Source: Bacillaceae bacterium | Lineage (GTDB): Bacteria; Bacillota; Bacilli; JACDOE01 | Direction of reading: 5' to 3' | Assembly (NCBI GenBank): GCA_017656255.1 | Contig: JACDOE010000010.1 | Location: forward strand, 36,400 to 100,399 | DNA length: 64,000 nt | Shown here: positions 5,933 to 50,624 of the stretch, in pieces | How positions within the stretch are numbered: position 1 is the stretch's first letter | Layout: each line of letters begins with the position of its first letter | Program-made: the position numbers and the translations under genes | Notes under the pieces: model-generated | The model's input: only the letters and a program-made list of their open reading frames with translations | The model's database searches: none | Told to the model about the DNA's origin: nothing

Positions 5933-7144
5933 TTATTTCATATCCAACTTACTGTTATACTTAATCGAGTCGGGAAGTGGAATATGCTCTACCTTAGGAA
6001 GAGATAAAAGACTTAGTAAACATAAACCCATAAATCCCAAGAATACATAGTGCGTATTCATAATCCCAGCCAAATACCCAGAAAGCAAGGCTGAAGAAAT
6101 CTTAGCAAATGATACCACAATTGACCGGAAACTAATCACGCGGCCCATTAACTCTTTAGGAGTGTTAATCTGAACCAGTGTCTGCATAGAAATCACATGA
6201 AATAGAATGAAGAATCCGAACCCGAACAAAGCAAAAACTGTAAACCAAACGTACCCATCAATTCCCATAAATAAGGAAAATACTACTAAACCAACTAAAG
6301 TTACCACACTAACTTTCTCTTTATATTTATATAATGCTTTTTCCACAACAAATCCACCCAATGATCCACCTAGTGTGAATGAAATGGTTATTATAGAAAA
6401 TAAAACGCTGGAACCTTTCATATCTCGTGCAACCATTGGAGCGAGTAGAGTATTTGTCATTTGATACCCTGCACTACTAATAGTAGCGAGGAAAAACAAG
6501 TATAACATTCCTCTTTTTTCATTTACAAACTTCCAACCAACTTTAATACCTTCAATAACGTCCATACTTTTACTTTGAATATTACGTCTATCTATTCGAC
6601 GAAGCAGTATAAAGAAAATTGATGATACCATAAAGGTTAATGCATTGATTGCAAAACAAATTTCTACTGATAAAATAGACATTACGATTCCTGCTATACC
6701 AGTACCAATCAATGCCATGACAAAATTAATTGAAGATGACTTAGAGATAACATAAACCATTTCTTCATCGCTGAATGATTCTCTAATTAACGTTTGAGAA
6801 GATGGCTTAAATACCAGATGACAAACTGCTAAAACAACTTGAAGAAGATAAAACATAACAATTGATATAGTATCTATAAAAATTAACAGAACAACAATAG
6901 ATACAGCTAACCCACGAATTAACTGAACAGCAACTGTTAACACTTTGGAGTCCTGATGGTCTGTAATTATTCCTACCCATGGTGCGAAAAATAAGGGAGG
7001 TAGGTAATTAATGGCGATTAATATTCCAAGGGACAGGGGACTTCCTGTAAGTTTTAAAACCAACCACATCAACGCTACCGATTGGAAACCATCTCCTAAA
7101 TTATTAATTGCTGAACCTAACAAATAAAAGAACTTATTTCGCAT
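5933..7144 (-). CDS. MFS transporter
   Basis: 403-aa ORF with about 12 hydrophobic helices and an MFS-like N-terminus ('LGDGFQSVALMWLVLKLTGSPLSLG'). GGAAGGG RBS upstream. Confidence 0.8.
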   Translation of the reverse strand: MRNKFFYLLGSAINNLGDGFQSVALMWLVLKLTGSPLSLGILIAINYLPPLFFAPWVGIITDHQDSKVLTVAVQLIRGLAVSIVVLLIFIDTISIVMFYLLQVVLAVCHLVFKPSSQTLIRESFSDEEMVYVISKSSSINFVMALIGTGIAGIVMSILSVEICFAINALTFMVSSIFFILLRRIDRRNIQSKSMDVIEGIKVGWKFVNEKRGMLYLFFLATISSAGYQMTNTLLAPMVARDMKGSSVLFSIITISFTLGGSLGGFVVEKALYKYKEKVSVVTLVGLVVFSLFMGIDGYVWFTVFALFGFGFFILFHVISMQTLVQINTPKELMGRVISFRSIVVSFAKISSALLSGYLAGIMNTHYVFLGFMGLCLLSLLSLPKVEHIPLPDSIKYNSKLDMK

Positions 7145-33504: not shown

Positions 33505-34398
33505 TTATCCTCTCGGCCCCGCCTGTTCTTCCCTGTTTTTCACCATGTTCATCCAGCGGTTATTGACACATTTTTTCTTGAATAGATTCCATTTATGGCG
33601 AATTTGATATCGCTGATTGATGCGTGTTGCAACACCCTGTTCCGGAAGTGGATACGGATCTTCAATCCCGGTCACAAATAGACTCACTTTAAAGCGTTGG
33701 CCGGGTTCATCCATCGAATAGGTGCCCATCTTCAGAATGTCCGCTTTGTGAAACAGGTCATTAAGACGGAGCGTCATGTGGCGAAAGGTATTCATGTCCA
33801 CCTCACGCGCATACCCGATATTGACGATCATATTGCGCCCTTCCGCATAATCCGGGGCCAGGTAAGGTGCCGATATGGCATACTTTAAAGGTTCATTGAA
33901 AGAGTCGCCTTCGATCGTCCGGATAAAAACCGGACCGTCATCTCCTTTCAACAGCGTTTTGATATCATGGACATCGATATTGATTTCACCGGATAAACGA
34001 ACCATCTCCTCTACAATTCGCACCGGGGCTTCTTCAAGGGATTCAATGGTCTCCTGGGCCTGCTTGTACGGCACCTCCGGGTCCATCAATTCCATCATCC
34101 CGTCACTGTCAAAATAAGTGACCGCGTCGCAGATTCCCTTCATCTGGTGGTACTGCATCACAGCCGTTTCAAGTCGCTTTTTTCCTTCAAACTTGAACGG
34201 AAACCGAAAGATGCCGATCAAAAAACCCTGCGTCTCTTTCAAACGGTACAAACTTTCCACCATCTCCTCCGTTTCACCCGGATTGCCGCCACGAAACCGG
34301 AAAAAACAGATGTCATCCGGTTCTATCTGAGAGACCTGCGACATATCCTTGTTACCCACAGACTGTTTAAAAATAAAGATGCTGACCTCTTGACCCAT
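33505..34398 (-). CDS. FtsZ-derived protein lacking the N-terminal GTP-binding loops
   Basis: 'IGIFRFPFKFEGKKRLETAVMQYHQMKGICDAV' and 'INIDVHDIKTLLKGDDGPVFI...NMIVNIGYAREVDM...KVSLFVTGI' are co-linear with the FtsZ core. No GGGTGTG/T4-type loop is present. The ATG at 34398 follows AAGGGGGA. Confidence 0.6.
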   Translation of the reverse strand: MGQEVSIFIFKQSVGNKDMSQVSQIEPDDICFFRFRGGNPGETEEMVESLYRLKETQGFLIGIFRFPFKFEGKKRLETAVMQYHQMKGICDAVTYFDSDGMMELMDPEVPYKQAQETIESLEEAPVRIVEEMVRLSGEINIDVHDIKTLLKGDDGPVFIRTIEGDSFNEPLKYAISAPYLAPDYAEGRNMIVNIGYAREVDMNTFRHMTLRLNDLFHKADILKMGTYSMDEPGQRFKVSLFVTGIEDPYPLPEQGVATRINQRYQIRHKWNLFKKKCVNNRWMNMVKNREEQAGPRG

Positions 34399-34565
34399 AG
34401 CCTGTCCCCCTTGCTTTTTATTCATTATATACGGAACAGGACGTAAAGAATGTCATCCCGGGTCGATGGCGGGGTTCTAGTTTTGCAGAATTTTGATGAA
34501 ACTGATTGTAATTCCTGATATACTCTAGTAACGAATAGATAATGACATAAATTGGAGGCATTGAC

Positions 34566-35924: not shown

Positions 35925-36815
35925 TCAGCTGACCGCATCGGTAATCATCTTGTGGTGAAACACCTGCTTCAATGCCGCCATCTCTTCGTCCGTCAGAGGG
36001 ACCAGGGGCAGACGAACCGATCCAACCTGAACCCCTGTCAACTCCAGCGCCGCCTTGACCGGAGTCGGACTCGGCGCGGCAAACAGAGCTTTCATCATGG
36101 GGAGCAGTTCCCGATGCAGACGGGCTGCCTCCTGTACCTCACCGTTAAAATAGGCTGATACCATTTGTTTCATTTCGTTACCAATCACGTGAGACGCCAC
36201 GGATACCACACCCCGACCCCCGATGGACAGGACGGGAAGTGTCATGGAATCGTCTCCGCTGTACAGGCTGAAATCAGCATCGGTTTGTTGAATGATCTCT
36301 GCCATCGCGTCCAAATTGCCACTCGCTTCTTTAACCGCAACGATATTTTCAATCCGGGACAGCCGCACGATGGTCTCGACAGAGATGTTGACGACACTTC
36401 TGCCCGGGATATTGTAGAGCATCACCGGAAGTGTTGTTGATTCTGCAATCGCCTTGAAGTGCTGATACAACCCTTCCTGTGACGGTTTGTTGTAATAGGG
36501 AGCCACCAGCATAATCCCATCAACGCCGCAACGCTCCGCTTCTCTTGTCAATGCAATCGATTCCGCCGTATTGTAAGAACCGGTTCCGGCAATAACCGGG
36601 ACCCGTCCGTCAACAACTTCCACCACATGCCTGAATAACTGGATTTTCTCATCCTTCGAGAGTGTCGGAGATTCCCCCGTTGTACCGGCTACGACAAGTC
36701 CGTCGGACCCATTGCTGATCAAATGGCGGATCAGCTTACTGGTTGCCTCGAAATCCACTTCATTGTTCTGATCAAACGGTGTTACCATTGCCGTCAATAC
36801 CTGACCAAAGTTCAT
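35925..36815 (-). CDS. dapA: 4-hydroxy-tetrahydrodipicolinate synthase
   Basis: 296 aa with 'ALVTPF', 'GLVVAGTTGESPTLS', 'VIAGTGSYNT' and 'YNIPGRS'. These are classic DapA motifs. Confidence 0.92.
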   Translation of the reverse strand: MNFGQVLTAMVTPFDQNNEVDFEATSKLIRHLISNGSDGLVVAGTTGESPTLSKDEKIQLFRHVVEVVDGRVPVIAGTGSYNTAESIALTREAERCGVDGIMLVAPYYNKPSQEGLYQHFKAIAESTTLPVMLYNIPGRSVVNISVETIVRLSRIENIVAVKEASGNLDAMAEIIQQTDADFSLYSGDDSMTLPVLSIGGRGVVSVASHVIGNEMKQMVSAYFNGEVQEAARLHRELLPMMKALFAAPSPTPVKAALELTGVQVGSVRLPLVPLTDEEMAALKQVFHHKMITDAVS

Positions 36816-36900: not shown

Positions 36901-37140
36901 AAAAAAGCAACAGCGGAGGGTTTCCGTTGTTGCTTTAGAAACAATACCGGATCGTTTCCTTAGCGTGAGATAGCCCTCCATATAGCAACAAGACTATATG
37001 ACAGTTCTGCACTTATTCAGTGCAAAACCAGCTGCAGGAATCATGAGCTTCCCGAAGCTTCGGCAAATCCCCCTTTCCACAACCTTCACCGGAGCTCATT
37101 CTCCTCTGATTGTGTACTGATGGTCTTTGCGCCTCTATCC
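36901..37140 (-). ncRNA. lysine riboswitch (L-box) with terminator, leader of dapA
   Basis: The minus strand reads 'GATAGAGGCGC...GAGCTCCGGTGAAGG...GCCGAAGC...CTGG...GAACTGTCA...TGGAGGGCTATC'. The terminator 'AGCAACAACGGaaaccctCCGCTGTTGCTTTTTT' follows at 36901-36936. Confidence 0.85.
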
Positions 37141-37186
37141 TCACTCCATATATATTACTGAAGCAGGAAATATTGAATTTTCCTGT

Positions 37187-37240: not shown

Positions 37241-37280
37241 TTTATAAAATCAGGCCGTTACTCCGCAAGGAGTAACAGCC
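37241..37280 (-). terminator. terminator of MCP gene 1
   Basis: 'GGCTGTTACTCCttgcGGAGTAACGGCC' on the minus strand, followed by a T-rich tract. Confidence 0.6.
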
Positions 37281-37296
37281 TTAAATGTAAGATCTG

Positions 37297-39033
37297 TTAC
37301 ATTTTGAATCGGGACAGGGACTGATTCAATTCTTCCGCCATCTGGGCCAGGTTCTCGGCCATGCTGTTGATCTCCTGCATGGACGCGTTCTGCTGTTCCA
37401 TCGAGGCAGACAGTTCTTCCGTTCCCGCGGATGATTCTTCCGTCACGGCAGCGATGTCTTCCACCGCTTTCACACCCTGTTCCACTCTTCCCGTAATCTG
37501 TTCCGTTGCCATCGACACCTGCTGGATCTTGCCGCCCATCTCCTGGATGATTGCCGCAATCTCTTCGAAGGTCTTGCCGTTGGTTTCGATTACTTCCGAA
37601 CCTTCTTTGACCTGATCCACCGCTTCCTGCATCACCGTACCGGCTTCTTCTGCTTCCTTCAGCACCGAATGAACGATATCGGCGATCTCATTGGTAGATT
37701 TACCCGCCTGTTCTGCCAGTTTCCGTACTTCATCAGCCACCACGGCAAACCCTCTTCCCTGTTCACCGGCACGGGCTGCTTCAATCGCTGCATTCAGTGC
37801 CAGCAGGTTGGTCTGCTCGGCTATTTCATTGATCACTTTCAAGATTTCACTGATCTCTTTCGACTTTTCACTCAGCGTAAACACCACATTGGCCGATTGT
37901 GACACTTTCTGTTCGATGATTTGCATCTGTTCGATGGACTGATGGGCACTTTCCGCTCCCTGCCTGGATGCTTCATCTCCCCGGCGGGAACTTTCTTCCA
38001 TCTCCGTGGCACTGGCATTAATCTGTTTGATCTCTTCGTCGATCTGCTGCATGATCTCCAGCGCACTGCCTGCCTGCTCCGCCTGTGTGGTAGCACCTGC
38101 CGCCAGTTCTTCGGTGGTGGCAGATACCTGTTCGATTCCCTGGGTGATCTGGTTGGACGAAGCCGTCAGTTCCTCACTGGAGCCCGTCACCTTCTCAGAA
38201 ATGGTGCTGGCATCCTTGATCAGGGATCTCAGGTTATCCACCATGGCGTTCATGGCCTCGGACAGCTGACCGATCTCATCTTTCGAACGCACTTTCATCT
38301 GCGAAATCGCCAGGTTACCGTCCGCCAGCTGTTTCATTTTCTCCGTAATCTGTACGATCGGCGTACCCATGCGTCCGGCAAACATATAAATCACCACGAT
38401 ACCCACCACCAGTGCAATACCGAGGGTCAGCATCAACACCTGCAGAATACGGGTCGCTCCGCTGTTATAGTCCTCCATGTAAGAACCGGCACTGATCACC
38501 CATCCCCAGTGAGGGTCCAGTTCGCTGTAAGAAATTTTCGGCGCCAGTTTATCGGGGTTATCGGGAAGCGGCCACTCGTAATAGGTGAAACCTCCGCCTT
38601 CCTGAGCCTTTTTAATAAAATCACGAATAAAATAAAAACCGTTTTGTGTCTGGAAATCCCACATGTTTTTCCCTTCTACTGCGGGATGAGCCAGGGTATT
38701 CCCTTTTTGATCCACAACGGTAAAGTACCCGCGGGCCCCCAGATCGATCGTCTTATCGACCGGGCGCTTGCCCTCACTGTTTTTTTCACCGAGAATCTGT
38801 ACTTTGACCCGCTCCTGAGCTTCTTCGAGGGTCAGGGTTCCTTTCTGTACTTCCTCATCCAGCGTGGCAATCATTTTTTTAACCATCCGTACATTATTCT
38901 GGAGTCCCGTCGCTCCGGCATCATTCAGCTCATTCTCGGCGATCTGATAGGCTATCACGCCGATGATGAGACCGGGTATCACCAGTAAAGCAAGGCTGAT
39001 CAAAATAAGTTTCGCTTTAATGTTAAGTTTCAT
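37297..39033 (-). CDS. methyl-accepting chemotaxis protein (dCache-type sensor, HAMP, MA domain), paralog 1
   Basis: 578 aa with an N-terminal TM helix, a periplasmic Cache-like region, a second TM helix, a HAMP domain and the highly conserved signalling hairpin '[40 protein letters not shown]'. Confidence 0.9.
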
Positions 39034-39074
39034 TGTCCTACTCCCATCCTTTTAATCTGTCTTTGTATATGAAT

Positions 39075-39235
39075 ATAAAAAGACTATTTCAACCATATGA
39101 AATAGCCTCCGTTACCTGTAGATGCACGTTCCCTGAAGCTGGTTCTCTCTTCGGTAACCCGGCATCTGTTCGATCTGATTTCAGACACCTGGGCTTTGCG
39201 CCCCCATCTCTCAATGAGTTTGCCGTTTCGGAGTT
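39075..39235 (-). ncRNA. c-di-GMP-I (GEMM-I) riboswitch with terminator, leader of MCP gene 1
   Basis: The minus strand reads 'GGCAAACTCATTGAGAGATGGGGGCGCAAAGCC...CCGGGTTACCGAAG', with a GNRA-capped P1a and the GCGCAAAGCC core. A hairpin 'CTATTTCAtatggTTGAAATAG' plus a T-run follows at 39083-39105. Confidence 0.8.
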
Positions 39236-39287
39236 CATTATGTATTTGTGACAAAAACATGAAAGTTTTTCCTGTAAAACAATTAAT

Positions 39288-39316
39288 AATATACGACAAT
39301 TTTTTATATTTTTCAA
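39288..39316 (-). promoter_or_regulatory. sigma-A-type promoter of the riboswitch/MCP-1 transcript
   Basis: Minus strand: TTGAAA, 17 nt, TATATT. The block is conserved at 41460-41488. Confidence 0.55.
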
Positions 39317-39431: not shown

Positions 39432-39464
39432 TAAAAATGCCGCCACTCCCGAAGGAGTAACGGC
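39432..39464 (-). terminator. terminator of MCP gene 2
   Basis: 'GCCGTTACTCCttcgGGAGTGGCGGC' followed by 'atttttatttt' on the minus strand. Confidence 0.6.
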
Positions 39465-39479
39465 ATGATCTGACCGCTG

Positions 39480-41219
39480 TTACATTTTGAATCGGGACAG
39501 GGATTGATTCAATTCTTCCGCCATCTGGGCCAGGTTCTCGGCCATGCTGTTGATCTCCTGCATGGACGCGTTCTGCTGTTCCATCGAGGCAGACAGTTCT
39601 TCCGTTCCCGCGGATGATTCTTCCGTCACGGCAGCGATGTCTTCCACCGCTTTCACACCCTGTTCCACTCTTCCCGTAATCTGTTCCGTTGCCATCGACA
39701 CCTGCTGGATCTTGCCGCCCATCTCCTGGATGATTGCCGCAATCTCTTCGAAGGTCTTGCCGTTGGTTTCGATTACTTCCGAACCTTCTTTGACCTGATC
39801 CACCGCTTCCTGCATCACCGTACCGGCTTCTTCTGCTTCCTTCAGCACCGAATGAACGATATCGGCGATCTCATTGGTAGATTTACCCGCCTGTTCTGCC
39901 AGTTTCCGTACTTCATCAGCCACCACGGCAAACCCTCTTCCCTGTTCACCGGCACGGGCTGCTTCAATCGCTGCATTCAGTGCCAGCAGGTTGGTCTGCT
40001 CGGCTATTTCATTGATCACTTTCAAGATTTCACTGATCTCTTTCGACTTTTCACTCAGCGTAAACACCACATTGGCCGATTGTGACACTTTCTGTTCGAT
40101 GATTTGCATCTGTTCGATGGACTGATGGGCACTTTCCGCTCCCTGCCTGGATGCTTCATCTCCCCGGCGGGAACTTTCTTCCATCTCCGTGGCACTGGCA
40201 TTAATCTGTTTGATCTCTTCGTCGATCTGCTGCATGATCTCCAGCGCACTGCCTGCCTGCTCCGCCTGTGTGGTAGCACCTGCCGCCAGTTCTTCGGTGG
40301 TGGCAGATACCTGTTCGATTCCCTGGGTGATCTGGTTGGACGAAGCCGTCAGTTCCTCACTGGAGCCCGTCACCTTCTCAGAAATGGTGCTGGCATCCTT
40401 GATCAGGGATCTCAGGTTATCCACCATGGCGTTCATGGCCTCGGACAGCTGACCGATCTCATCTTTCGAACGCACCTTCATCTGCGAAATCGCCAGGTTA
40501 CCGTCCGCCAGCTGTTTCATTCTCTCCGTAATCTGTACGATCGGCGTACCCATGCGTCCGGCAAACAGGTAAATGGCCACGATACCTACCACCAGCGCAA
40601 TGCCGAGGGTCAGCATCAATACCTGCAGAATACGGGTTGCTCCGCTGTTATAATCTTTCATATAGGAACCGGCAGCCACTATCCAACCCCAGTGGGGATC
40701 CAGTTCCGTGTATGCAATCTTGGGCGCAAGAGAGTCCGGGTCATCCGGAAGCGGCCAGTCATAATAAGTGAATCCTCCGCCCTCCTCCGCCTTCTTTACC
40801 ATATCACGGGCAAAGTAGTATCCGTCTTCTGTTTTTGTATCCCACAAACTCTCTCCCTCAAGCAGTGGATGTGCAATAAGGACTGCTTTTCGCGACATAA
40901 CAAAATAGTAACCGTTTTCACCAATGTCAATCGTTTTATCGATCGGGCGCTTGCCCTCACTGTTCATTTCTCCCAGAATCTGTACCTTCACCCGCTCCTG
41001 GGCTTCTTCGAGGGTCAGGGTTCCTTTCTGTACTTCCTCATCCAGGGCGGCAATCATCTTTTTTACCAGGCGGACATCATTTTTCAATCCCGTAGCCCCG
41101 GCGTTGTTCAATTCGTCCTTGGCAATCTGAAAGGCCGTCATCCCGATGATCAGGCCGGGGACCGCCAGCAAAGCAAGGCTGATTAAGATAAGCTTGGCTT
41201 TAATGTTGATGAGTTTCAT
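39480..41219 (-). CDS. methyl-accepting chemotaxis protein, paralog 2
   Basis: 579 aa. The C-terminal 330 aa or so match paralog 1 exactly, while the sensor domain has diverged. Confidence 0.9.
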
Positions 41220-41254
41220 ATGTAGCTTCCCATCCTTCTTTTCTTTTTGATGAT

Positions 41255-41410
41255 TATAAAAAGGCTATTTCAACCCGTTGAAATAGCCTTCGTTACCTGC
41301 TGTTGATGACTCTTGATGAGGATTTCTCACGGTAACCCGGCATCTTTCATCTACTTCACAGACACCAGGGCTTTGCGCCCCCATCTTTCGATGAGTTTGC
41401 CTTTTCTAAA
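41255..41410 (-). ncRNA. c-di-GMP-I (GEMM-I) riboswitch with terminator, leader of MCP gene 2
   Basis: The minus strand reads 'GGCAAACTCATCGAAAGATGGGGGCGCAAAGCC...CCGGGTTACCGTGAG'. The hairpin 'GGCTATTTCAacgggTTGAAATAGCC' plus a T-run follows. A compensatory change occurs in P1a relative to copy 1. Confidence 0.8.
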
Positions 41411-41459: not shown

Positions 41460-41488
41460 AATATACGACAATTTTTGTTATTTTTCAA
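41460..41488 (-). promoter_or_regulatory. sigma-A-type promoter of the riboswitch/MCP-2 transcript
   Basis: Minus strand: TTGAAA, 17 nt, TATATT. Confidence 0.55.
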
Positions 41489-41577: not shown

Positions 41578-42075
41578 TTAATTTTTTACCTCATAGAAAC
41601 GATGCTCAAATGTCAGCTTGTCCCCAACAGTCAAGACACCATATGAATAGCGGGGTTGTCTGCGTTTATCCGTTGGAGAGCCCGGATTAAACAAAATGAT
41701 TCCGTCACGTTCTTCAAGCAGCGGAATATGCGAATGACCGAAAATAATGGCATCCACCTGTTCCCCCTTAAAGGCATCCACCGCCCGCTGTAAGGTAGTC
41801 TTCCCCCGACCGTCCCCGTGAACGAGACCGACTCTGAACCCTTCCAGAGAGAGAATCTTCTTTTTGCCAAACCGCCGGATGATCTCTTCGCCGTCTACAT
41901 TACCTGCTACCCCTTCAACCGGGGCGTAGGTTCTAAGTAACTCATAGATCTCCATGGTCTGCCAGTCTCCGGCATGGATGATGAGATCCGCCTGTTCCAG
42001 CTCCTCCACCAGTTGATGGGGGAATTCCTTAGCGCGACGCGGCATATGGGTATCGGAAACAACACAGACTCTCAT
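41578..42075 (-). CDS. YfcE/MJ0936-family metallophosphoesterase
   Basis: Contains 'VVSDTHMP', 'IIHAGD', 'GNVD', 'LVHGD' and 'FGHSHIP'. Confidence 0.8.
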   Translation of the reverse strand: MRVCVVSDTHMPRRAKEFPHQLVEELEQADLIIHAGDWQTMEIYELLRTYAPVEGVAGNVDGEEIIRRFGKKKILSLEGFRVGLVHGDGRGKTTLQRAVDAFKGEQVDAIIFGHSHIPLLEERDGIILFNPGSPTDKRRQPRYSYGVLTVGDKLTFEHRFYEVKN

Positions 42076-42704
42076 GCCTGACGACCTCCTGAAGGTAACA
42101 TTTTTAAATAGGTCAACACCTGATCGGGATGATCAATCAGGTTCCATCCCCTGGCCTGCAATTGTTCTTGATGGACACGATTAAATGACTCCGCCTCTTC
42201 GATAATACTTCTTTGCCACGTTTTCAATTGCTGCCGGGTTTCTTCCGCAGCCTGATCTTCAATGGTATGACAGACAAACGAGCGGCAGATACTGGTCTTG
42301 TAACGGGGTGGCAGGCCGCACCCCTTTCCTGAAACAAAAAAAGAACAGATCGAATATGTCATCTTGAAATCCACCGCGCGATAACGGGTGGAAGCATTGG
42401 CCAGCCATTTCCTGTATTTCTCCTGTTCCTCTGAACGGTAAAACCGGTCATCCACCTGTGCTTCAACCAGGATCTCGTAAGGGAAGATACGTCGTTTCGG
42501 ATGATGATAGATATGATTCATAAAAAAATCGTCATCTCCATCCCGCACCATTTTATAGATTTCAAACAGAGTAAACACCGGCTCATACCGGCAGCACCCC
42601 ACATTTTCCATATCGTCAAAAACAGGCGTGAAATCCGGATCACCGCAGTGCATACACAGCGAGGAAAGGATCTGTTTGTTGTCACCGTCCCAGCGGCAGG
42701 ACAT
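42072..42704 (-). CDS. Cys-rich hypothetical protein (possible YkgJ/UPF0153-like cysteine cluster)
   Basis: 210 aa with 'CMHCGDPD...VGCCRYEP' and 'CSFFVSGKGCG...SICRSFVCH'. It overlaps the downstream gene by 4 nt. Confidence 0.4.
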   Translation of the reverse strand: MSCRWDGDNKQILSSLCMHCGDPDFTPVFDDMENVGCCRYEPVFTLFEIYKMVRDGDDDFFMNHIYHHPKRRIFPYEILVEAQVDDRFYRSEEQEKYRKWLANASTRYRAVDFKMTYSICSFFVSGKGCGLPPRYKTSICRSFVCHTIEDQAAEETRQQLKTWQRSIIEEAESFNRVHQEQLQARGWNLIDHPDQVLTYLKMLPSGGRQA

Positions 42705-44910: not shown

Positions 44911-45699
44911 CTATTTCTGAAGGGGGCGCAGGACCGGTTGTTCCTTATCGGCATTACTCACAAATTTGTAGATTGAGATTTCAACACGGCGATTCAGCGC
45001 TCTTCCCTCTTTCGTTTCATTGGTTGCAATCGGACGGAATTCCCCGTAGCCTTCTGCATGAAACCGGCCGGGATTTAACTGATCATTTTGCAACAGGATT
45101 TTCATAAAATTGAGTGCCCGTTCGGTGCTGAGATCCCAGTTGGATTCAAACTGAGCAGTACGAATGGGACGATTGTCCGTATGACCGGCCACCACCACTT
45201 CATAGCCCGGATATTCAACCAGCATTTCCGAAAGGGCGACGCCGAGTTGTCTGGCTCCGGGATTGACCTCGGCACTTCCCGAGTCAAACAGGGCATGGTC
45301 GCGAATGGTGATCATCAGCAGGTTTTTGTTCAGGCTCGTTTCAATTTCCGATTCCAGATGATTCTCTTGAATGTAGCGATCAACCCTTTTTTTCAATTCT
45401 TCCAGATTTTTTAATTCCGCCCCGATGTTTTTATCCGTATCGGAACCCCGGTGTTCCGTCGACTCCGTCGGTTGATCCACTTCAAGCGGAAAGGCACTGG
45501 TATACTCCAAAATGCCTGAACCACTATGGAAGGCAGAATTCATGGCCAGTATCAACCGGTCATATTTCTTCTGATCAATGTTACTGACAGCAAAGAGAAC
45601 AATGAACAGAGCCAGCAGCAGGGTCAGCAGATCGGCATATGGAATAAGCCAGGTTTCATCAATATGCTCTTCCTCATGCTGTTTGCGCTTCTTCGGCAT
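44911..45699 (-). CDS. motB: flagellar motor stator protein MotB (OmpA-like C-terminal domain)
   Basis: Contains the N-terminal 'WLIPYADLLTLLLALFIVLFA' with the conserved Asp, and the C-terminal 'VVAGHTDNRPI...FESNWDLSTERA...NRRVEI'. Confidence 0.88.
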   Translation of the reverse strand: MPKKRKQHEEEHIDETWLIPYADLLTLLLALFIVLFAVSNIDQKKYDRLILAMNSAFHSGSGILEYTSAFPLEVDQPTESTEHRGSDTDKNIGAELKNLEELKKRVDRYIQENHLESEIETSLNKNLLMITIRDHALFDSGSAEVNPGARQLGVALSEMLVEYPGYEVVVAGHTDNRPIRTAQFESNWDLSTERALNFMKILLQNDQLNPGRFHAEGYGEFRPIATNETKEGRALNRRVEISIYKFVSNADKEQPVLRPLQK

Positions 45700-46498
45700 T
45701 TGCCGGATCCTCCTGTTGAGTGCCTGTATCCTCCTGCACCTGTTTCAATTCGGAGCTAGAAACAAATACAGACAATTTTTGTTCAATATTCGTTGGCGAC
45801 ATCCCCAGTTGGATGGACAACAATCCTTCCACCATCAACAGTTTGGTTTCAACTTCCTGTCTGGACAAACGTTTAAGTTTGTTGGCAATGGGATGCCACA
45901 GGACATATCCGGTAAAAATACCGAGGAGCGTTGCGACAAACGCGGCAGCAATCGAATGCCCGAGGACTTCAATGTCATCCAGATTTCCCAGGGCAGCAAT
46001 CAGGCCGACAACAGCCCCAAGTACCCCCAGTGTCGGTGCATATGTACCAGCCTGTGTAAAAATCAGGGCTCCAGCTTTATGTCTCTCTTCGATGGCTTCG
46101 ATCTTTTCCAGCAACACATCGCGGACAAAGTCGTTTTCACTTCCGTCAATAATCATCATCAGCCCGTCTTTTAAAAAGGGATCGTCCAGATCTTCCACTT
46201 TGTTTTCCAGGGATAAAAGGCCTTCGCGTCTGGCATGTCCGGCCAGGTCGACAAATAATTTGATCAATTCCGGTTTGGAGGGAATATCCGGTTTCTTAAA
46301 CACAATTTTGATCAATTTGGGGAATTTTTTTAATTCTTCCAGCGGAAAACCGATAAACAGAGAAGCAGCTGTTCCGACGATAATAATTAAAAATGCAGCC
46401 GGGTTAATCAGTGCGGCGAGGGAGGCGCCTTTTAACACCATTCCCAGTCCCACTGCAATAAGTCCCAGTGTAATCCCGATCCATGTTGATCTTTCCAT
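45674..46498 (-). CDS. motA: flagellar motor stator protein MotA (MotA/TolQ/ExbB channel family)
   Basis: Four TM helices with 'GTYAPTLGVLGAVVGLI' and 'AAAFVATLLGIFTGYVLWHPIANKL'. The ATG at 46498 follows AAGGGAG. It overlaps motB. Confidence 0.88.
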   Translation of the reverse strand: MERSTWIGITLGLIAVGLGMVLKGASLAALINPAAFLIIIVGTAASLFIGFPLEELKKFPKLIKIVFKKPDIPSKPELIKLFVDLAGHARREGLLSLENKVEDLDDPFLKDGLMMIIDGSENDFVRDVLLEKIEAIEERHKAGALIFTQAGTYAPTLGVLGAVVGLIAALGNLDDIEVLGHSIAAAFVATLLGIFTGYVLWHPIANKLKRLSRQEVETKLLMVEGLLSIQLGMSPTNIEQKLSVFVSSSELKQVQEDTGTQQEDPANAEEAQTA

Positions 46499-46880
46499 GA
46501 TTGCCACTCCCTTTCGGTCCATGGTCCTTGTTGCGTTCTACATGTTTCGATTTATTTTTTAAGATTATATCATTAATTGGTCAAAACTACCAAGTTTTTT
46601 TACATATCATGACACTGCATTTAATTTTATGTAATAAATTGTCGTATAGATAAATGTTATCCATTTATAGAAAAAGGTCACCGGGGTTCAATGGTTGTCG
46701 TGGAAGGCAGAGTTCGACCGAAGGAGTGTCTCCGAATTAAAAGGGGGACCCGTCCTGGAGAATTTCTCTGTTATACGCCGATTTAGACTCGAATATGAGG
46801 CGACGGGTTGAGAGCTGATCTTCCGTTTTCCGGAACACCTGACGACTGTTTCTGTCACATCTTCACCCATCCCCTGTAAA

Positions 46881-48423: not shown

Positions 48424-49548
48424 TTATAGATTTACTGTTTTGGCATCGCTGTAAATGATTCGGTTGCGACCGGCCTTTTTGGCTGCATACATGGCCTGGT
48501 CCGTCCGGTTGATCATTTGATCCGCACTTTCAGCAGTTCCGGGTACCACCGTGGTAACGCCGATACTGACGGTCACCCGTGAAGACGTATCTGAATGCGG
48601 GTGTTTAATGTCCAGAGACTCAATGTCACGACGGATATTTTCCGCTATGTGGAGCGCATTGTCCTTGTCTGTATCAGGGAGGATCATCATAAATTCTTCT
48701 CCACCGTAGCGCGCCGCCAGGTCTCCCGGTCGCGTCGCCGCATCAACCAGTACCCGTGCCACCTCTTTCAAACAGGCATCCCCGGCCTGGTGACCGTAAA
48801 CATCATTGTAGTTCTTAAACCGATCGATATCGAGCATCAGTAAAGAGAGTGGATTTTTCTCACGAATCGCCCTGTTCCATTGCTTTCTCAGGGTCTTTTC
48901 AAACTGTCTCCGGTTTGGGATACCGGTGAGGCCGTCCACCATGGAAAGACGCCGCAGCGAATCTTCTCTTTTTTTACTCTCTGTGATATCGCGGGACACT
49001 CCCAAAAGGTGCGTACAGTTCCCTGTTTCATCAAGCATGGGAATCAGGGATGTTTCTACAATCAGCGTTCCCACCGGAAGCTGAACGTCCTCTTCATATT
49101 TTAAGGTATCCCGTTGTTGAACCGCTTCTTTATATTTACCGATGACAAAATCGGCTTCACGTGGTGGAAGGATGTGTTCAATACGATTTCCCACGACGTC
49201 CTCCCTTTTCATTCCCGTTGCCTGCAGATAAGCGTCGTTCACCTCGACACATCGAAAGACTTGTCCCGGTTCCACCCTCATTAAAAACATCAAATCGGAT
49301 ACCCCGTTAAAAATGAGGGAAAGCCTTCTTTTTTCATGCATTTCCCGGGCAAGAAAACGAACACCAAACAGATAGACAAAAGGTAAGCTGATCAGTGATA
49401 AAAGCACAGCATCAACCAAGTGCTCCCAGCGATTCGGAAGGGTTAGCCTTTCCAGAAATATCATGATGAAATATTCAATGATTCCGATGATGACCAGATT
49501 CAGCAGAAACAGATAAACCAGGGTTCCGGTCTTTTTATTAGGCAACAT
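48424..49548 (-). CDS. membrane-anchored PAS-GGDEF diguanylate cyclase
   Basis: Two N-terminal TM helices, a PAS-like region, and a GGDEF domain ('DRFKNYNDVYGHQAGD', 'ARYGGEEFMMIL'). Confidence 0.85.
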   Translation of the reverse strand: MLPNKKTGTLVYLFLLNLVIIGIIEYFIMIFLERLTLPNRWEHLVDAVLLSLISLPFVYLFGVRFLAREMHEKRRLSLIFNGVSDLMFLMRVEPGQVFRCVEVNDAYLQATGMKREDVVGNRIEHILPPREADFVIGKYKEAVQQRDTLKYEEDVQLPVGTLIVETSLIPMLDETGNCTHLLGVSRDITESKKREDSLRRLSMVDGLTGIPNRRQFEKTLRKQWNRAIREKNPLSLLMLDIDRFKNYNDVYGHQAGDACLKEVARVLVDAATRPGDLAARYGGEEFMMILPDTDKDNALHIAENIRRDIESLDIKHPHSDTSSRVTVSIGVTTVVPGTAESADQMINRTDQAMYAAKKAGRNRIIYSDAKTVNL

Positions 49549-49690
49549 CCTCACGCCTTTCACTGTAAACGATAGCTTATCTTAAGTATACACGGGTTCA
49601 GACTGGAAAGAAATATAAAAATGGCAAGTTTCGACTTTTTTCTTGAAACTGTTTCCAGCTTAACAGAGGTCGGAGGTTAGAGGCCGGAAG

Positions 49691-50428
49691 TCAGATTATG
49701 GGGGCATTCAGCAGGATTTTACTGAACAAATCCATTTTGTTCCCTTTTATTCCGAAGGGATACCCATTTCCATCCTCTCTTTCATGGTGTTGAAGGGCAA
49801 CCAGCGCCAGGCGGCGTGAAGCACCTACCGTATTTTGAATTAATTCATAGCCGTAAATGGTATGTTTTTGTATAATTTCATACTCTTGATCTGTGAGTTT
49901 ACCCGGTTTGTTCAGAATCTCGACAGGGATTCTGGTTTTGCCGATATCGTGGAGTGTAGCAGCGAGGGATAGAAGTGAAAGCTGAGAAGATTCAAGGTTC
50001 ATCCAGTTACCGATCATTGTCGCGATGATTCCCACTCCGATATTATGCCGGAATGTATAATCATCTTTGGACTGCAGTTCAGCAAACAATTGAAAAATGT
50101 CCGGATCTTCCGTGGCCTGATGAATGGCAGGAATGATTTTTTCTCTGATTTCAAAAAGAGGGATTTTTTTGCTGAACCTGACCGATTCGAATATGTGCGT
50201 GATCTCCTCAGTCGCCTGTTCGATCAGCACCTGACTTGCCTTTTTCTCCGGTGATTCCTCCGTCAACACAACATCGTCTTCCGTCAACCGAACGTTGTTT
50301 TCTACCATAATCATCCGGAGATAATGTTCATTGAGAACCGTGTCTTTTGGTAACAACAGAATTCCGGAAGCGTTAAAGATATCTCGCCTCAACCGTAAAC
50401 CGATCCATTTTTTAAAAGATGATGCCAT
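49691..50428 (-). CDS. HD-GYP domain protein (c-di-GMP phosphodiesterase family), C-terminally short
   Basis: Contains 'ATLHDIGKTRIP' and 'HHEREDGNGYP'. The ORF ends only about 25 aa after the GYP motif. Confidence 0.7.
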   Translation of the reverse strand: MASSFKKWIGLRLRRDIFNASGILLLPKDTVLNEHYLRMIMVENNVRLTEDDVVLTEESPEKKASQVLIEQATEEITHIFESVRFSKKIPLFEIREKIIPAIHQATEDPDIFQLFAELQSKDDYTFRHNIGVGIIATMIGNWMNLESSQLSLLSLAATLHDIGKTRIPVEILNKPGKLTDQEYEIIQKHTIYGYELIQNTVGASRRLALVALQHHEREDGNGYPFGIKGNKMDLFSKILLNAPII

Positions 50429-50624
50429 GCATTCCCCTTCCTTTGACAAATGGATTCATTTTTTGAATGCGCCGTATACCAGATGATGCTAGTTAATGTT
50501 AGATTATGTATGATATTCTTCATAAAAGTAAAATCTCCTTTTTTACAAATGGTTTATTTCTTCCTAAAGCCATAAAAAAAAGGCGGAATAAACGCCGCCT
50601 TTCATGTTATCCATTAAGTTATAC

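Follow-up and report, generated by a model that had tools for sequence, protein, structure and literature searches.

Two tandem chemoreceptor genes in a 64-kb stretch of a Bacillaceae genome (GenBank assembly GCA_017656255.1, contig JACDOE010000010.1, positions 36,400 to 100,399; hereafter the window, meaning the whole stretch analysed, numbered from its first letter) each carry in their leader an aptamer of the cyclic di-GMP class I (c-di-GMP-I, GEMM-I) family, followed by an intrinsic terminator. We propose that both leaders are probably transcriptional OFF switches of the type represented by Cd1 of C. difficile; ligand binding, the direction of control and its effectiveness in these two copies are predictions from sequence and folding models. 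Both units lie on the minus strand. Unit 1 (copy 1, W1) comprises a leader and the methyl-accepting chemotaxis protein (MCP) gene MCP1, and unit 2 (copy 2, W2) a leader and MCP2. An earlier note, made from the letters of this DNA, had assigned to each MCP paralog a c-di-GMP-I riboswitch of its own, with an expression platform of the terminator type, and gave no direction of regulation; that the direction is OFF is what we infer here.

The whole window was searched with cmscan and Rfam 15 at the curated gathering thresholds, which for RF01051 is a score of 35 bits; cmscan reports only the best among overlapping matches within Rfam clan CL00126. The scan returned three matches, namely two c-di-GMP-I aptamers, both inside the leader intervals that had been proposed, and one lysine riboswitch. 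The aptamer of unit 2 (41411-41328, minus strand) scored 53.3 bits (E 1.4e-7) and that of unit 1 (39234-39150, minus strand) 46.7 bits (E 5.4e-6), each covering model positions 1-87 of 87; the E values refer to the full window and library. The check named beforehand for the assignment was a search with the RF01051 covariance model, in which both leaders came out above the gathering score. Taken together, score, secondary structure and core nucleotides confirm that both window leaders carry c-di-GMP-I aptamers, for which binding of c-di-GMP is predicted.

All motifs that the earlier note quoted occur as written, namely GGCAAAC, a P1a hairpin capped by a GNRA loop, GGGGGCGCAAAGCC and CCGGGTTACCG. 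P1a reads CUCAUC-GAAA-GAUGGG in unit 2, where P1b is GGUGUCU...AGAUGCC, and CUCAUU-GAGA-GAUGGG in unit 1, so that GAAA and GAGA loops, both of the GNRA type, cap 6-bp stems. The core stretches GGCAAAC, CGCAAAGCC and GGUUACCG occur in both copies and coincide with upper-case positions of the RF01051 consensus. We take them to include the positions equivalent to the ligand contacts described for Vc2, G20, A47, and C92 (PMC5888326), with the numbering transferred onto the window aptamers by hand and not by a tool. A plausible outer P1 helix (GGAUUU/AAAUCC) exists in copy 2 only; in copy 1 it is weak.

The difference between the two P1a stems had been offered as a compensatory change, and this does not hold. 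CUCAUU/GAUGGG compared with CUCAUC/GAUGGG is a one-sided replacement of U-G by C-G, together with the GAGA/GAAA loop difference, and the argument is therefore invalid as stated. Two-sided change appears only when relatives are added. Our comparative set consisted of four leaders from two genomes, i.e., W1 and W2 from the window and L021 and L024 from the Bacilli metagenome-assembled genome (MAG) GCA_041686735.1. The RNAalifold consensus of these leaders recovered both aptamer hairpins and the terminator, with a compensatory change on both sides at the P1b base (window copies C-G, L021 and L024 A-U), and several further changes from G-U to G-C or A-U in the aptamer hairpins.

Each unit is ordered, from 5' to 3', as promoter, a 5' untranslated region (UTR) of about 55 nt, aptamer, a linker of 33-36 nt, the hexanucleotide GGUAAC, 3 nt, terminator, about 40 nt, ribosome-binding site (RBS) and ATG. 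Promoters were located by consensus scan, and terminators by a scanner together with minimum free energy (MFE) folds from RNAfold. Both promoters read TTGAAA-17 nt-TATATT. That of unit 2 (41460..41488, minus strand) is of the sigma-A type with 10 of 12 consensus matches, and that of unit 1 (39288..39316, minus strand) is conserved with it. A TTGTCG just upstream of the -10 box is kept in both (39294-39299 and 41466-41471). As a separate observation, T(T/A)GTCG abutting the -10 box is conserved in five c-di-GMP-I leaders (W1, W2, L021 at ~2700, L024 at ~2672, and L006 at ~2943), and the same promoter position is TATCG in two aptamer-less MCP leaders of relatives, L001 and L022. This element misfits the usual spacing of a TGn extended -10, and may be either a peculiarity of these promoters or a site for a protein. 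The chemoreceptor genes of B. subtilis have sigma-D (sigma-28) promoters; such a promoter was considered for the window genes and rejected, since no match to TAAA-N15-GCCGATAT was seen by eye and the conserved boxes are sigma-A-like.

The strand on which the proposed switch turns is the aptamer 3' strand AGAUGCCGGGUUACC, hereafter the A strand (41331..41345 in unit 2 and 39153..39167 in unit 1, both on the minus strand), which is the same in the two units and complementary to GGUAAC..GGC. It serves the aptamer as the P1b 3' strand, junction and P1, and would also serve the proposed antiterminator. GGUAAC, the switching strand, lies at 41292..41297 (minus) in unit 2, 33 nt past the aptamer and 3 nt ahead of the terminator stem, and at 39111..39116 (minus) in unit 1, 36 nt past the aptamer. 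An intrinsic terminator had been predicted downstream of each aptamer, and a hairpin with a U tract is indeed found in both copies. In leader 2 (41252..41290, minus strand), it reads AAGGCUAUUUCAA-CGGG-UUGAAAUAGCCUU then UUUAUAAUC, with a stem at 41290-41261 and a U run at 41258-41262. The MFE fold gives a hairpin of 13-14 bp, which the scanner missed because the extension of the stem consumed part of the T run. In leader 1 (39072..39110, minus strand), the scanner found a 13-pair stem (39110-39079), which is also present in the MFE folds, with T5 GGCUAUUUCA at 39107-39098, T3 UGAAAUAGUC at 39091-39082 and the U run at 39081-39077. Both terminators have the form GGCUAUUUCA / UGAAAUAG(U/C)C followed by UUUUU, with a G-U pair at the base of copy 1, and their pairs are kept in the consensus hairpin of the four leaders. 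The start codon follows after 43 nt in copy 1 and 38 nt in copy 2, with the RBS GGAUGGGA ahead of ATG in both units.

Each MCP gene also ends in a terminator of its own. The one that ends the MCP2 unit (39437..39466, minus strand) has a 13-bp stem with seven G-C pairs, then TTTTATTTTG, and the one that ends the MCP1 unit (37252..37281, minus strand) lies directly upstream of a lysine riboswitch-dapA unit. The two MCP genes therefore form two separate transcription units, each with its own sensor. A leader peptide or small open reading frame (ORF) as the regulatory element was rejected, since no ORF is conserved between the leaders and those present are unlike in frame, length and sequence.

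Identity between the two leaders is unevenly distributed. The promoters agree at 27 of 29 positions while their flanks have diverged; the aptamer 3' strand AGAUGCCGGGUUACCG is identical at 16 of 16 positions, and the stretch CAGGUAACGRAGGCUAUUUCA, which holds GGUAAC and T5, at 20 of 21. By comparison, the linkers share 17 of 33 positions and the stretch from the -10 box to the aptamer 30 of 53. Overall, promoter, aptamer, GGUAAC and terminator are 93-100% identical, against about 50% for linker and 5' UTR. Such a mosaic would be expected if, since an old duplication, selection had acted on promoter, aptamer, switching strand and terminator.

Relatives outside the window were sparse. A genome scan gave 18 loci, few of them informative, and a metagenome scan with the MCP protein just two remote loci at 26-27% identity. 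The closest other genome found was the Bacilli MAG GCA_041686735.1, with several MCP paralogs at 55-68% identity. Its L021 locus is the syntenic ortholog (68% identical protein; aptamer at 49.8 bits with RF01051), flanked as in the window by an M29 peptidase gene and a lysine-riboswitch dapA unit, and L024 is a second MCP paralog (56.8 bits). The platform has the same order in all four leaders, i.e., ..GCC[G/U]GGUUACC, a linker of 20-53 nt, GGUAAC, 2-4 nt, a GG(G)CUAUU(U)C hairpin and a U tract. The linkers of L021 (53 nt) and L024 (20 nt) are unrelated in sequence, the gap from GGUAAC to the hairpin is 4 and 2 nt, respectively, and in L024 one terminator position is maintained through changes on both strands. 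The L021 linker (2872-2905) additionally holds an extra terminator-like hairpin, GAAACAC..GUGUUUC then UUUUUGU, ahead of the main terminator, which recalls the dual terminator of Bc1, an MCP-linked c-di-GMP-I riboswitch of the B. cereus group; alternatively, the 5' strand of this L021 hairpin could form an outer P1 with GUG(G)UUUC, which lies upstream of the aptamer. Two further loci are built otherwise: L006 has a third aptamer with a different platform ahead of a small ORF and an MCP gene, and the aptamer of an MCP gene in L008 (Sporanaerobium) apparently lacks a terminator.

An alternative pairing between the P1 3' strand and a downstream sequence was among the proposals of the earlier note. 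The downstream sequence, CAGGTAACG(G/A), is present, and GGUAAC within it is the exact complement of the aptamer's GUUACC, giving six perfect pairs that are invariant in W1, W2, L021, and L024. In a list of all helices of at least 6 bp that touch the terminator region, GUUACC:GGUAAC is the only perfect helix conserved in position, and it is part of the MFE structure in W2, L021, and L024. Since GGUUACC forms part of P1b at its base, of the junction and of P1, in the region of the ligand pocket, pairing with GGUAAC excludes the bound aptamer. The bound aptamer and the terminator, on the other hand, are compatible in all four leaders. Before the 3' strand of the terminator has been made, the fold with GGUAAC:GUUACC is better than the aptamer-compatible fold by 3.4 kcal/mol in W2, 4.0 kcal/mol in L021 and 10.1 kcal/mol in L024.

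The antiterminator is clearest in L024, where GCCUGGUUACC:GGUAACCGGGC forms a continuous 11-bp helix of -20.7 kcal/mol that belongs to the MFE structure of both the truncated and the full leader. This helix takes GGC, the only G-C pairs of the terminator base, and leaves a 6-bp hairpin of which five pairs are A-U. L021 has a 10-bp antiterminator that reaches AGGGC of the terminator, and its extended form lies within 0.4 kcal/mol of the MFE before T3 exists. In the window copies, the corresponding structure consists of 6 bp, a 2x3 internal loop and 3 bp of GCC:GGC (-12.9 kcal/mol). Forcing GCC:GGC before the terminator 3' strand is made costs 1.0 kcal/mol in copy 2 and 5.2 kcal/mol in copy 1.

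In the mechanism that we propose, the aptamer 3' strand (AGAUGCC-GG-GUUACC) would pair, when no ligand is bound, with GGUAAC-GRA-GGC, transcribed 33-36 nt later. This antiterminator would break the ligand pocket and capture GGC, to which the otherwise A-U terminator stem owes its only G-C (or G-U) pairs, at its base; polymerase would read through and the receptor would be produced. When c-di-GMP is bound, the aptamer would keep its 3' strand and GGUAAC..GGC would be left free, the terminator GGCUAUUUCA/UGAAAUAG(C/U)C plus U5 would form, and transcription would halt before the RBS, such that both receptors would be made at a lower dose when c-di-GMP is high. Motility functions are generally repressed by high c-di-GMP, which we count in favor of the OFF direction. 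That c-di-GMP sets chemoreceptor dosage, as the earlier note had suggested, we likewise infer.

Several results weigh against OFF switching in the window copies. The antiterminator is predicted to be weak in both, and it may disable the terminator only marginally. Its overlap with the terminator amounts to only three pairs, behind the internal loop, and forcing these pairs in the full leaders costs 7-8 kcal/mol. Copy 1 prefers the aptamer-compatible fold to the GUUACC:GGUAAC hairpin by 1.7 kcal/mol, and its extended A:T duplex (A strand with terminator) is no better than shuffled controls. In the full-leader MFE folds of both window copies, P1a, P1b, the GUUACC:GGUAAC hairpin and the complete terminator coexist, so that thermodynamics alone would let the terminator form whether the ligand is present or not. 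The antiterminator pairs are invariant in the four leaders, which is conservation and not covariation, and the four leaders collected come from two genomes. The canonical 11-nt receptor for the GAAA tetraloop (CUAAG...UAUG type) is absent from both window aptamers, its model positions being deleted in the cmscan alignments; a tetraloop receptor in P1b is typical of one c-di-GMP-I subtype and not obligatory for the family, and a CUAAGG...CUAUGA receptor is carried by L024 and by the second aptamer of L006. Finally, Bc1-mcpE, the sole MCP-linked c-di-GMP-I riboswitch that has been studied, stayed OFF in vivo whatever the c-di-GMP level (PMC11218506).

Several of these results would also suit leaders in which the aptamers are real and the terminator is effectively constitutive (a locked-OFF attenuator), with expression set mainly by promoter strength or by another factor such as a protein or an RNase, and c-di-GMP having little or no effect. 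In the full MFE folds of both window leaders, the complete terminator adjoins the GUUACC:GGUAAC hairpin and does not overlap it, the GCC:GGC extension carries the high cost given above, and copy 1 disfavors the hairpin even before the terminator is complete. However, Cd1 shows that an antiterminator likewise only transiently stable can belong to a functional switch (PMC9262584), and the antiterminators of L024 and L021 clearly overlap the terminator. The response of Bc1, which was unresponsive to c-di-GMP in vivo or in vitro (PMC11218506), speaks for a constitutive terminator, as do L001 and L022, which retain promoter and terminator without an aptamer, so that the terminator can exist without the sensor. 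Against this, the aptamer, its 3' strand and GGUAAC are near-invariant compared with about 50% identity elsewhere in the leader, which is hard to explain without a switching role. Weighing both sides, we consider a constitutive terminator possible and rather unlikely, and hold OFF switching to be the probable function.

Other antiterminators were tried within the OFF model. The apical loop of P1b can pair with the 5' strand and loop of the terminator, as UGAAAU:AUUUCA in W1, UGAAGUAG:CUAUUUCA in W2 and UCUUCAUUG:CAAUGAAGA in L021. This pairing was not adopted as the antiterminator, since its extended duplex beats shuffled sequences only at p ~0.03-0.04 in W2 and L021 and fails to do so in W1, and the loop is not itself ligand-dependent; it is possible as an extension of the antiterminator. 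A pairing of the P1a 3' strand (GAGAUGG) with CUAUUUC was dropped as weak, rich in G-U pairs and in competition with a local hairpin, and one of the A-rich junction with the U tract as trivial A/U complementarity.

It is quite unlikely that the leaders work in the opposite sense, as ON switches in which c-di-GMP blocks termination and raises chemoreceptor expression. Among all helices of at least 6 bp with the terminator strands, there is no conserved partner that the bound aptamer would free or sequester in order to block the terminator, and the compatibility of bound aptamer and terminator in four of four leaders also speaks against it. The 5' strand of the L021 linker hairpin (GAAACAC...GUGUUUC-UUUUU) could, in our own reading, form an outer P1 with GUG(G)UUUC, which would suit an ON switch, but the window leaders contain no equivalent hairpin with a U tract. 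ON switches do exist among c-di-GMP-I riboswitches, for example Bc2 (PMC4933901).

Recognition of another cyclic dinucleotide, e.g., 3'3'-cGAMP as in GEMM-Ib, is very unlikely. There are GEMM-I-like aptamers of altered specificity whose first annotation was as c-di-GMP sensors (PMC9262584), yet the best match within clan CL00126 is c-di-GMP-I, and a gene for a GGEEF cyclase lies nearby. In addition, GGCAAAC, CGCAAAGCC and GGUUACCG fit the family consensus in both copies, with G, not A, in the GGCAAAC stretch (contacts mapped by hand). It is scarcely credible that the aptamers are decaying relics of duplication or chance matches with no present function: copy 1 does score lower (46.7 bits) and has a G-U pair in its terminator base and no clear outer P1, but both copies are well above threshold (E 1e-5 to 1e-7) and their functional elements are selectively conserved between the paralogs and in another genome.

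The two receptors are of the same build. MCP1 (37297..39033, minus strand; 578 aa, NCBI MBO8173001.1) and MCP2 (39480..41219, minus strand; 579 aa, NCBI MBO8173002.1), deposited under a Bacillaceae bacterium MAG, both have the Pfam architecture sCache_2-HAMP-MCPsignal and are 91% identical, with all differences in the N-terminal sensor part. At the DNA level, about 1 kb encoding HAMP and the signaling domain (37314-38313 and 39497-40496) is 100% identical, and the sCache_2 part and the leaders are only 45-95% identical per 50-nt step. The 1-kb identity points to gene conversion of the signaling module or to an effect of MAG assembly. The sensor domain of MCP1 looks closer than that of MCP2 to the single-copy ortholog P0002.

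With the same signaling modules and different sensors, the two receptors might be governed by differently tuned c-di-GMP switches, and rising c-di-GMP would then shift which ligand is sensed before chemotaxis is shut down, and not just reduce the amount of receptor. In copy 2, the loop is GAAA, an outer P1 is plausible and the antiterminator is favored by 3.4 kcal/mol; copy 1 has a GAGA loop, a weaker terminator and an aptamer-compatible fold favored by 1.7 kcal/mol. We regard this elaboration as speculative and doubtful.

As the earlier note had said, genes for a GGDEF protein, an HD-GYP protein and motAB are found within 10 kb, recognized by Pfam and in the translations. They lie within 9 kb on the same strand (minus): motB (44911-45699; MotB_plug/OmpA), motA (45674-46522; MotA_ExbB/MotA_N), a PAS-GGDEF diguanylate cyclase gene (48424..49563; Pfam and translation) whose product has a GGEEF active site and an RxxD I-site (RPGD), and a gene for an HD-GYP type protein (49691..50449; HHEREDGNGYP, with Pfam HD_5 at positions 7-130 of 170). 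The HD-GYP ORF stops about 20 residues past GYP, with no continuation in any other frame ahead of the GGDEF gene; the protein may be truncated or inactive. Adjacency is no evidence that the nearby cyclase feeds these riboswitches. On the other side of the cassette, also on the minus strand, a lysine riboswitch (36963-37145; 130.9 bits with Rfam) immediately follows the MCP1 terminator and precedes dapA (35925-36815), encoding dihydrodipicolinate synthase, and the same pair adjoins the L021 MCP ortholog. Two ORFs near the cassette, 42072-42704 (minus strand, 210 aa) and 33505-34425 (minus strand, 306 aa), have no Pfam match.

Some relatives show the parts of the leader in other combinations. 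L001 (3840-3990) and L022 (2825-2975) are leaders of MCP paralogs at 63-64% identity, from the Bacilli MAG and a Logan assembly, with no c-di-GMP aptamer. They share the window-type promoter (TTGAAA..TATCGTAAAAT) and terminator (GGCUAUUUCA..GAAAUAGCC-U run), and an insert of about 75 nt, closed by a GGAAUAG(G)...CUAUUCC helix that abuts the terminator, replaces the aptamer. No Rfam family matched these two leaders at E <= 1. They might reflect loss of the aptamer or a different, undescribed sensor. At L006, a fourth aptamer (6151-6237; 54.4 bits) with a terminator stands ahead of an unannotated ORF, and its platform (ACCGAAGAUU..AAUCUUGG-GCUGUUUC hairpin) is arranged so that the terminator shares its first two G with the switching strand.

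Should these leaders indeed be OFF switches, c-di-GMP would in this uncultured bacterium be tied directly to the make-up of the chemoreceptor array at the level of transcription elongation, alongside any control of the flagellar motor, in a second Bacilli lineage beside that of Bc1-mcpE and with a simpler, single-terminator platform. The strength series L024 > L021 > copy 2 > copy 1 could be used for testing how much overlap of antiterminator and terminator is needed. Knowledge of the riboswitch class itself is unchanged. It is established that c-di-GMP-I riboswitches precede chemoreceptor genes (Bc1) and, for Cd1, that the class exerts OFF control of motility genes by termination; the points of interest are modest, namely the tandem duplication of promoter, riboswitch and gene, the series of antiterminator strengths, and the aptamer-less leaders with the same promoter and terminator.

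Among known systems, the window leaders can be compared with four. Vc2 of Vibrio cholerae, the structural reference, shares the core GGCAAAC, CGCAAAGCC, and GGUUACCG. It is a translational OFF switch in which ligand binding depends on how stable the P1 helix is (PMC9262584), whereas control in the window would be exerted by an intrinsic terminator and an outer P1 is plausible in copy 2 only. Bc2 of B. thuringiensis, which precedes the gene of a collagen adhesion protein, belongs to the same class and likewise controls termination in a Bacillus (PMC4933901), but it is an ON switch on an adhesin gene, whereas the anatomy of the window leaders points to OFF control of a motility-related gene. Bc1-mcpE shares the genetic setting, with a c-di-GMP-I aptamer in the 5' UTR of an MCP gene of a Bacillus relative and a platform of the terminator type; of 155 B. 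cereus group genomes, 98.7% have the Bc1-mcp architecture (PMC11218506). The Bc1 platform, however, is long: its two terminators lie 28 bp from each other, and an opposing effect on translation has been proposed, whereas each window leader has one terminator and the cassette as a whole occurs as a tandem duplicate; among the relatives, only L021 has a second terminator-like hairpin.

The closest mechanistic likeness is to Cd1, which lies upstream of the flgB flagellar operon of C. difficile and combines the same aptamer class, a terminator and OFF control of a motility function (PMC9262584). In Cd1, aptamer and terminator coexist when the ligand is bound, and the antiterminator is transient and starts about 45 nt past the aptamer (PMC9262584). 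The antiterminators in both systems (predicted in the window leaders) use the aptamer 3' strand and start roughly 35-50 nt downstream of the aptamer, a comparison drawn from the published description of Cd1. Unlike Cd1, the predicted switches of the window serve single chemoreceptor genes instead of a flagellar operon, and their antiterminator is short (6 + 3 bp), with an overlap of 3 bp with the terminator.

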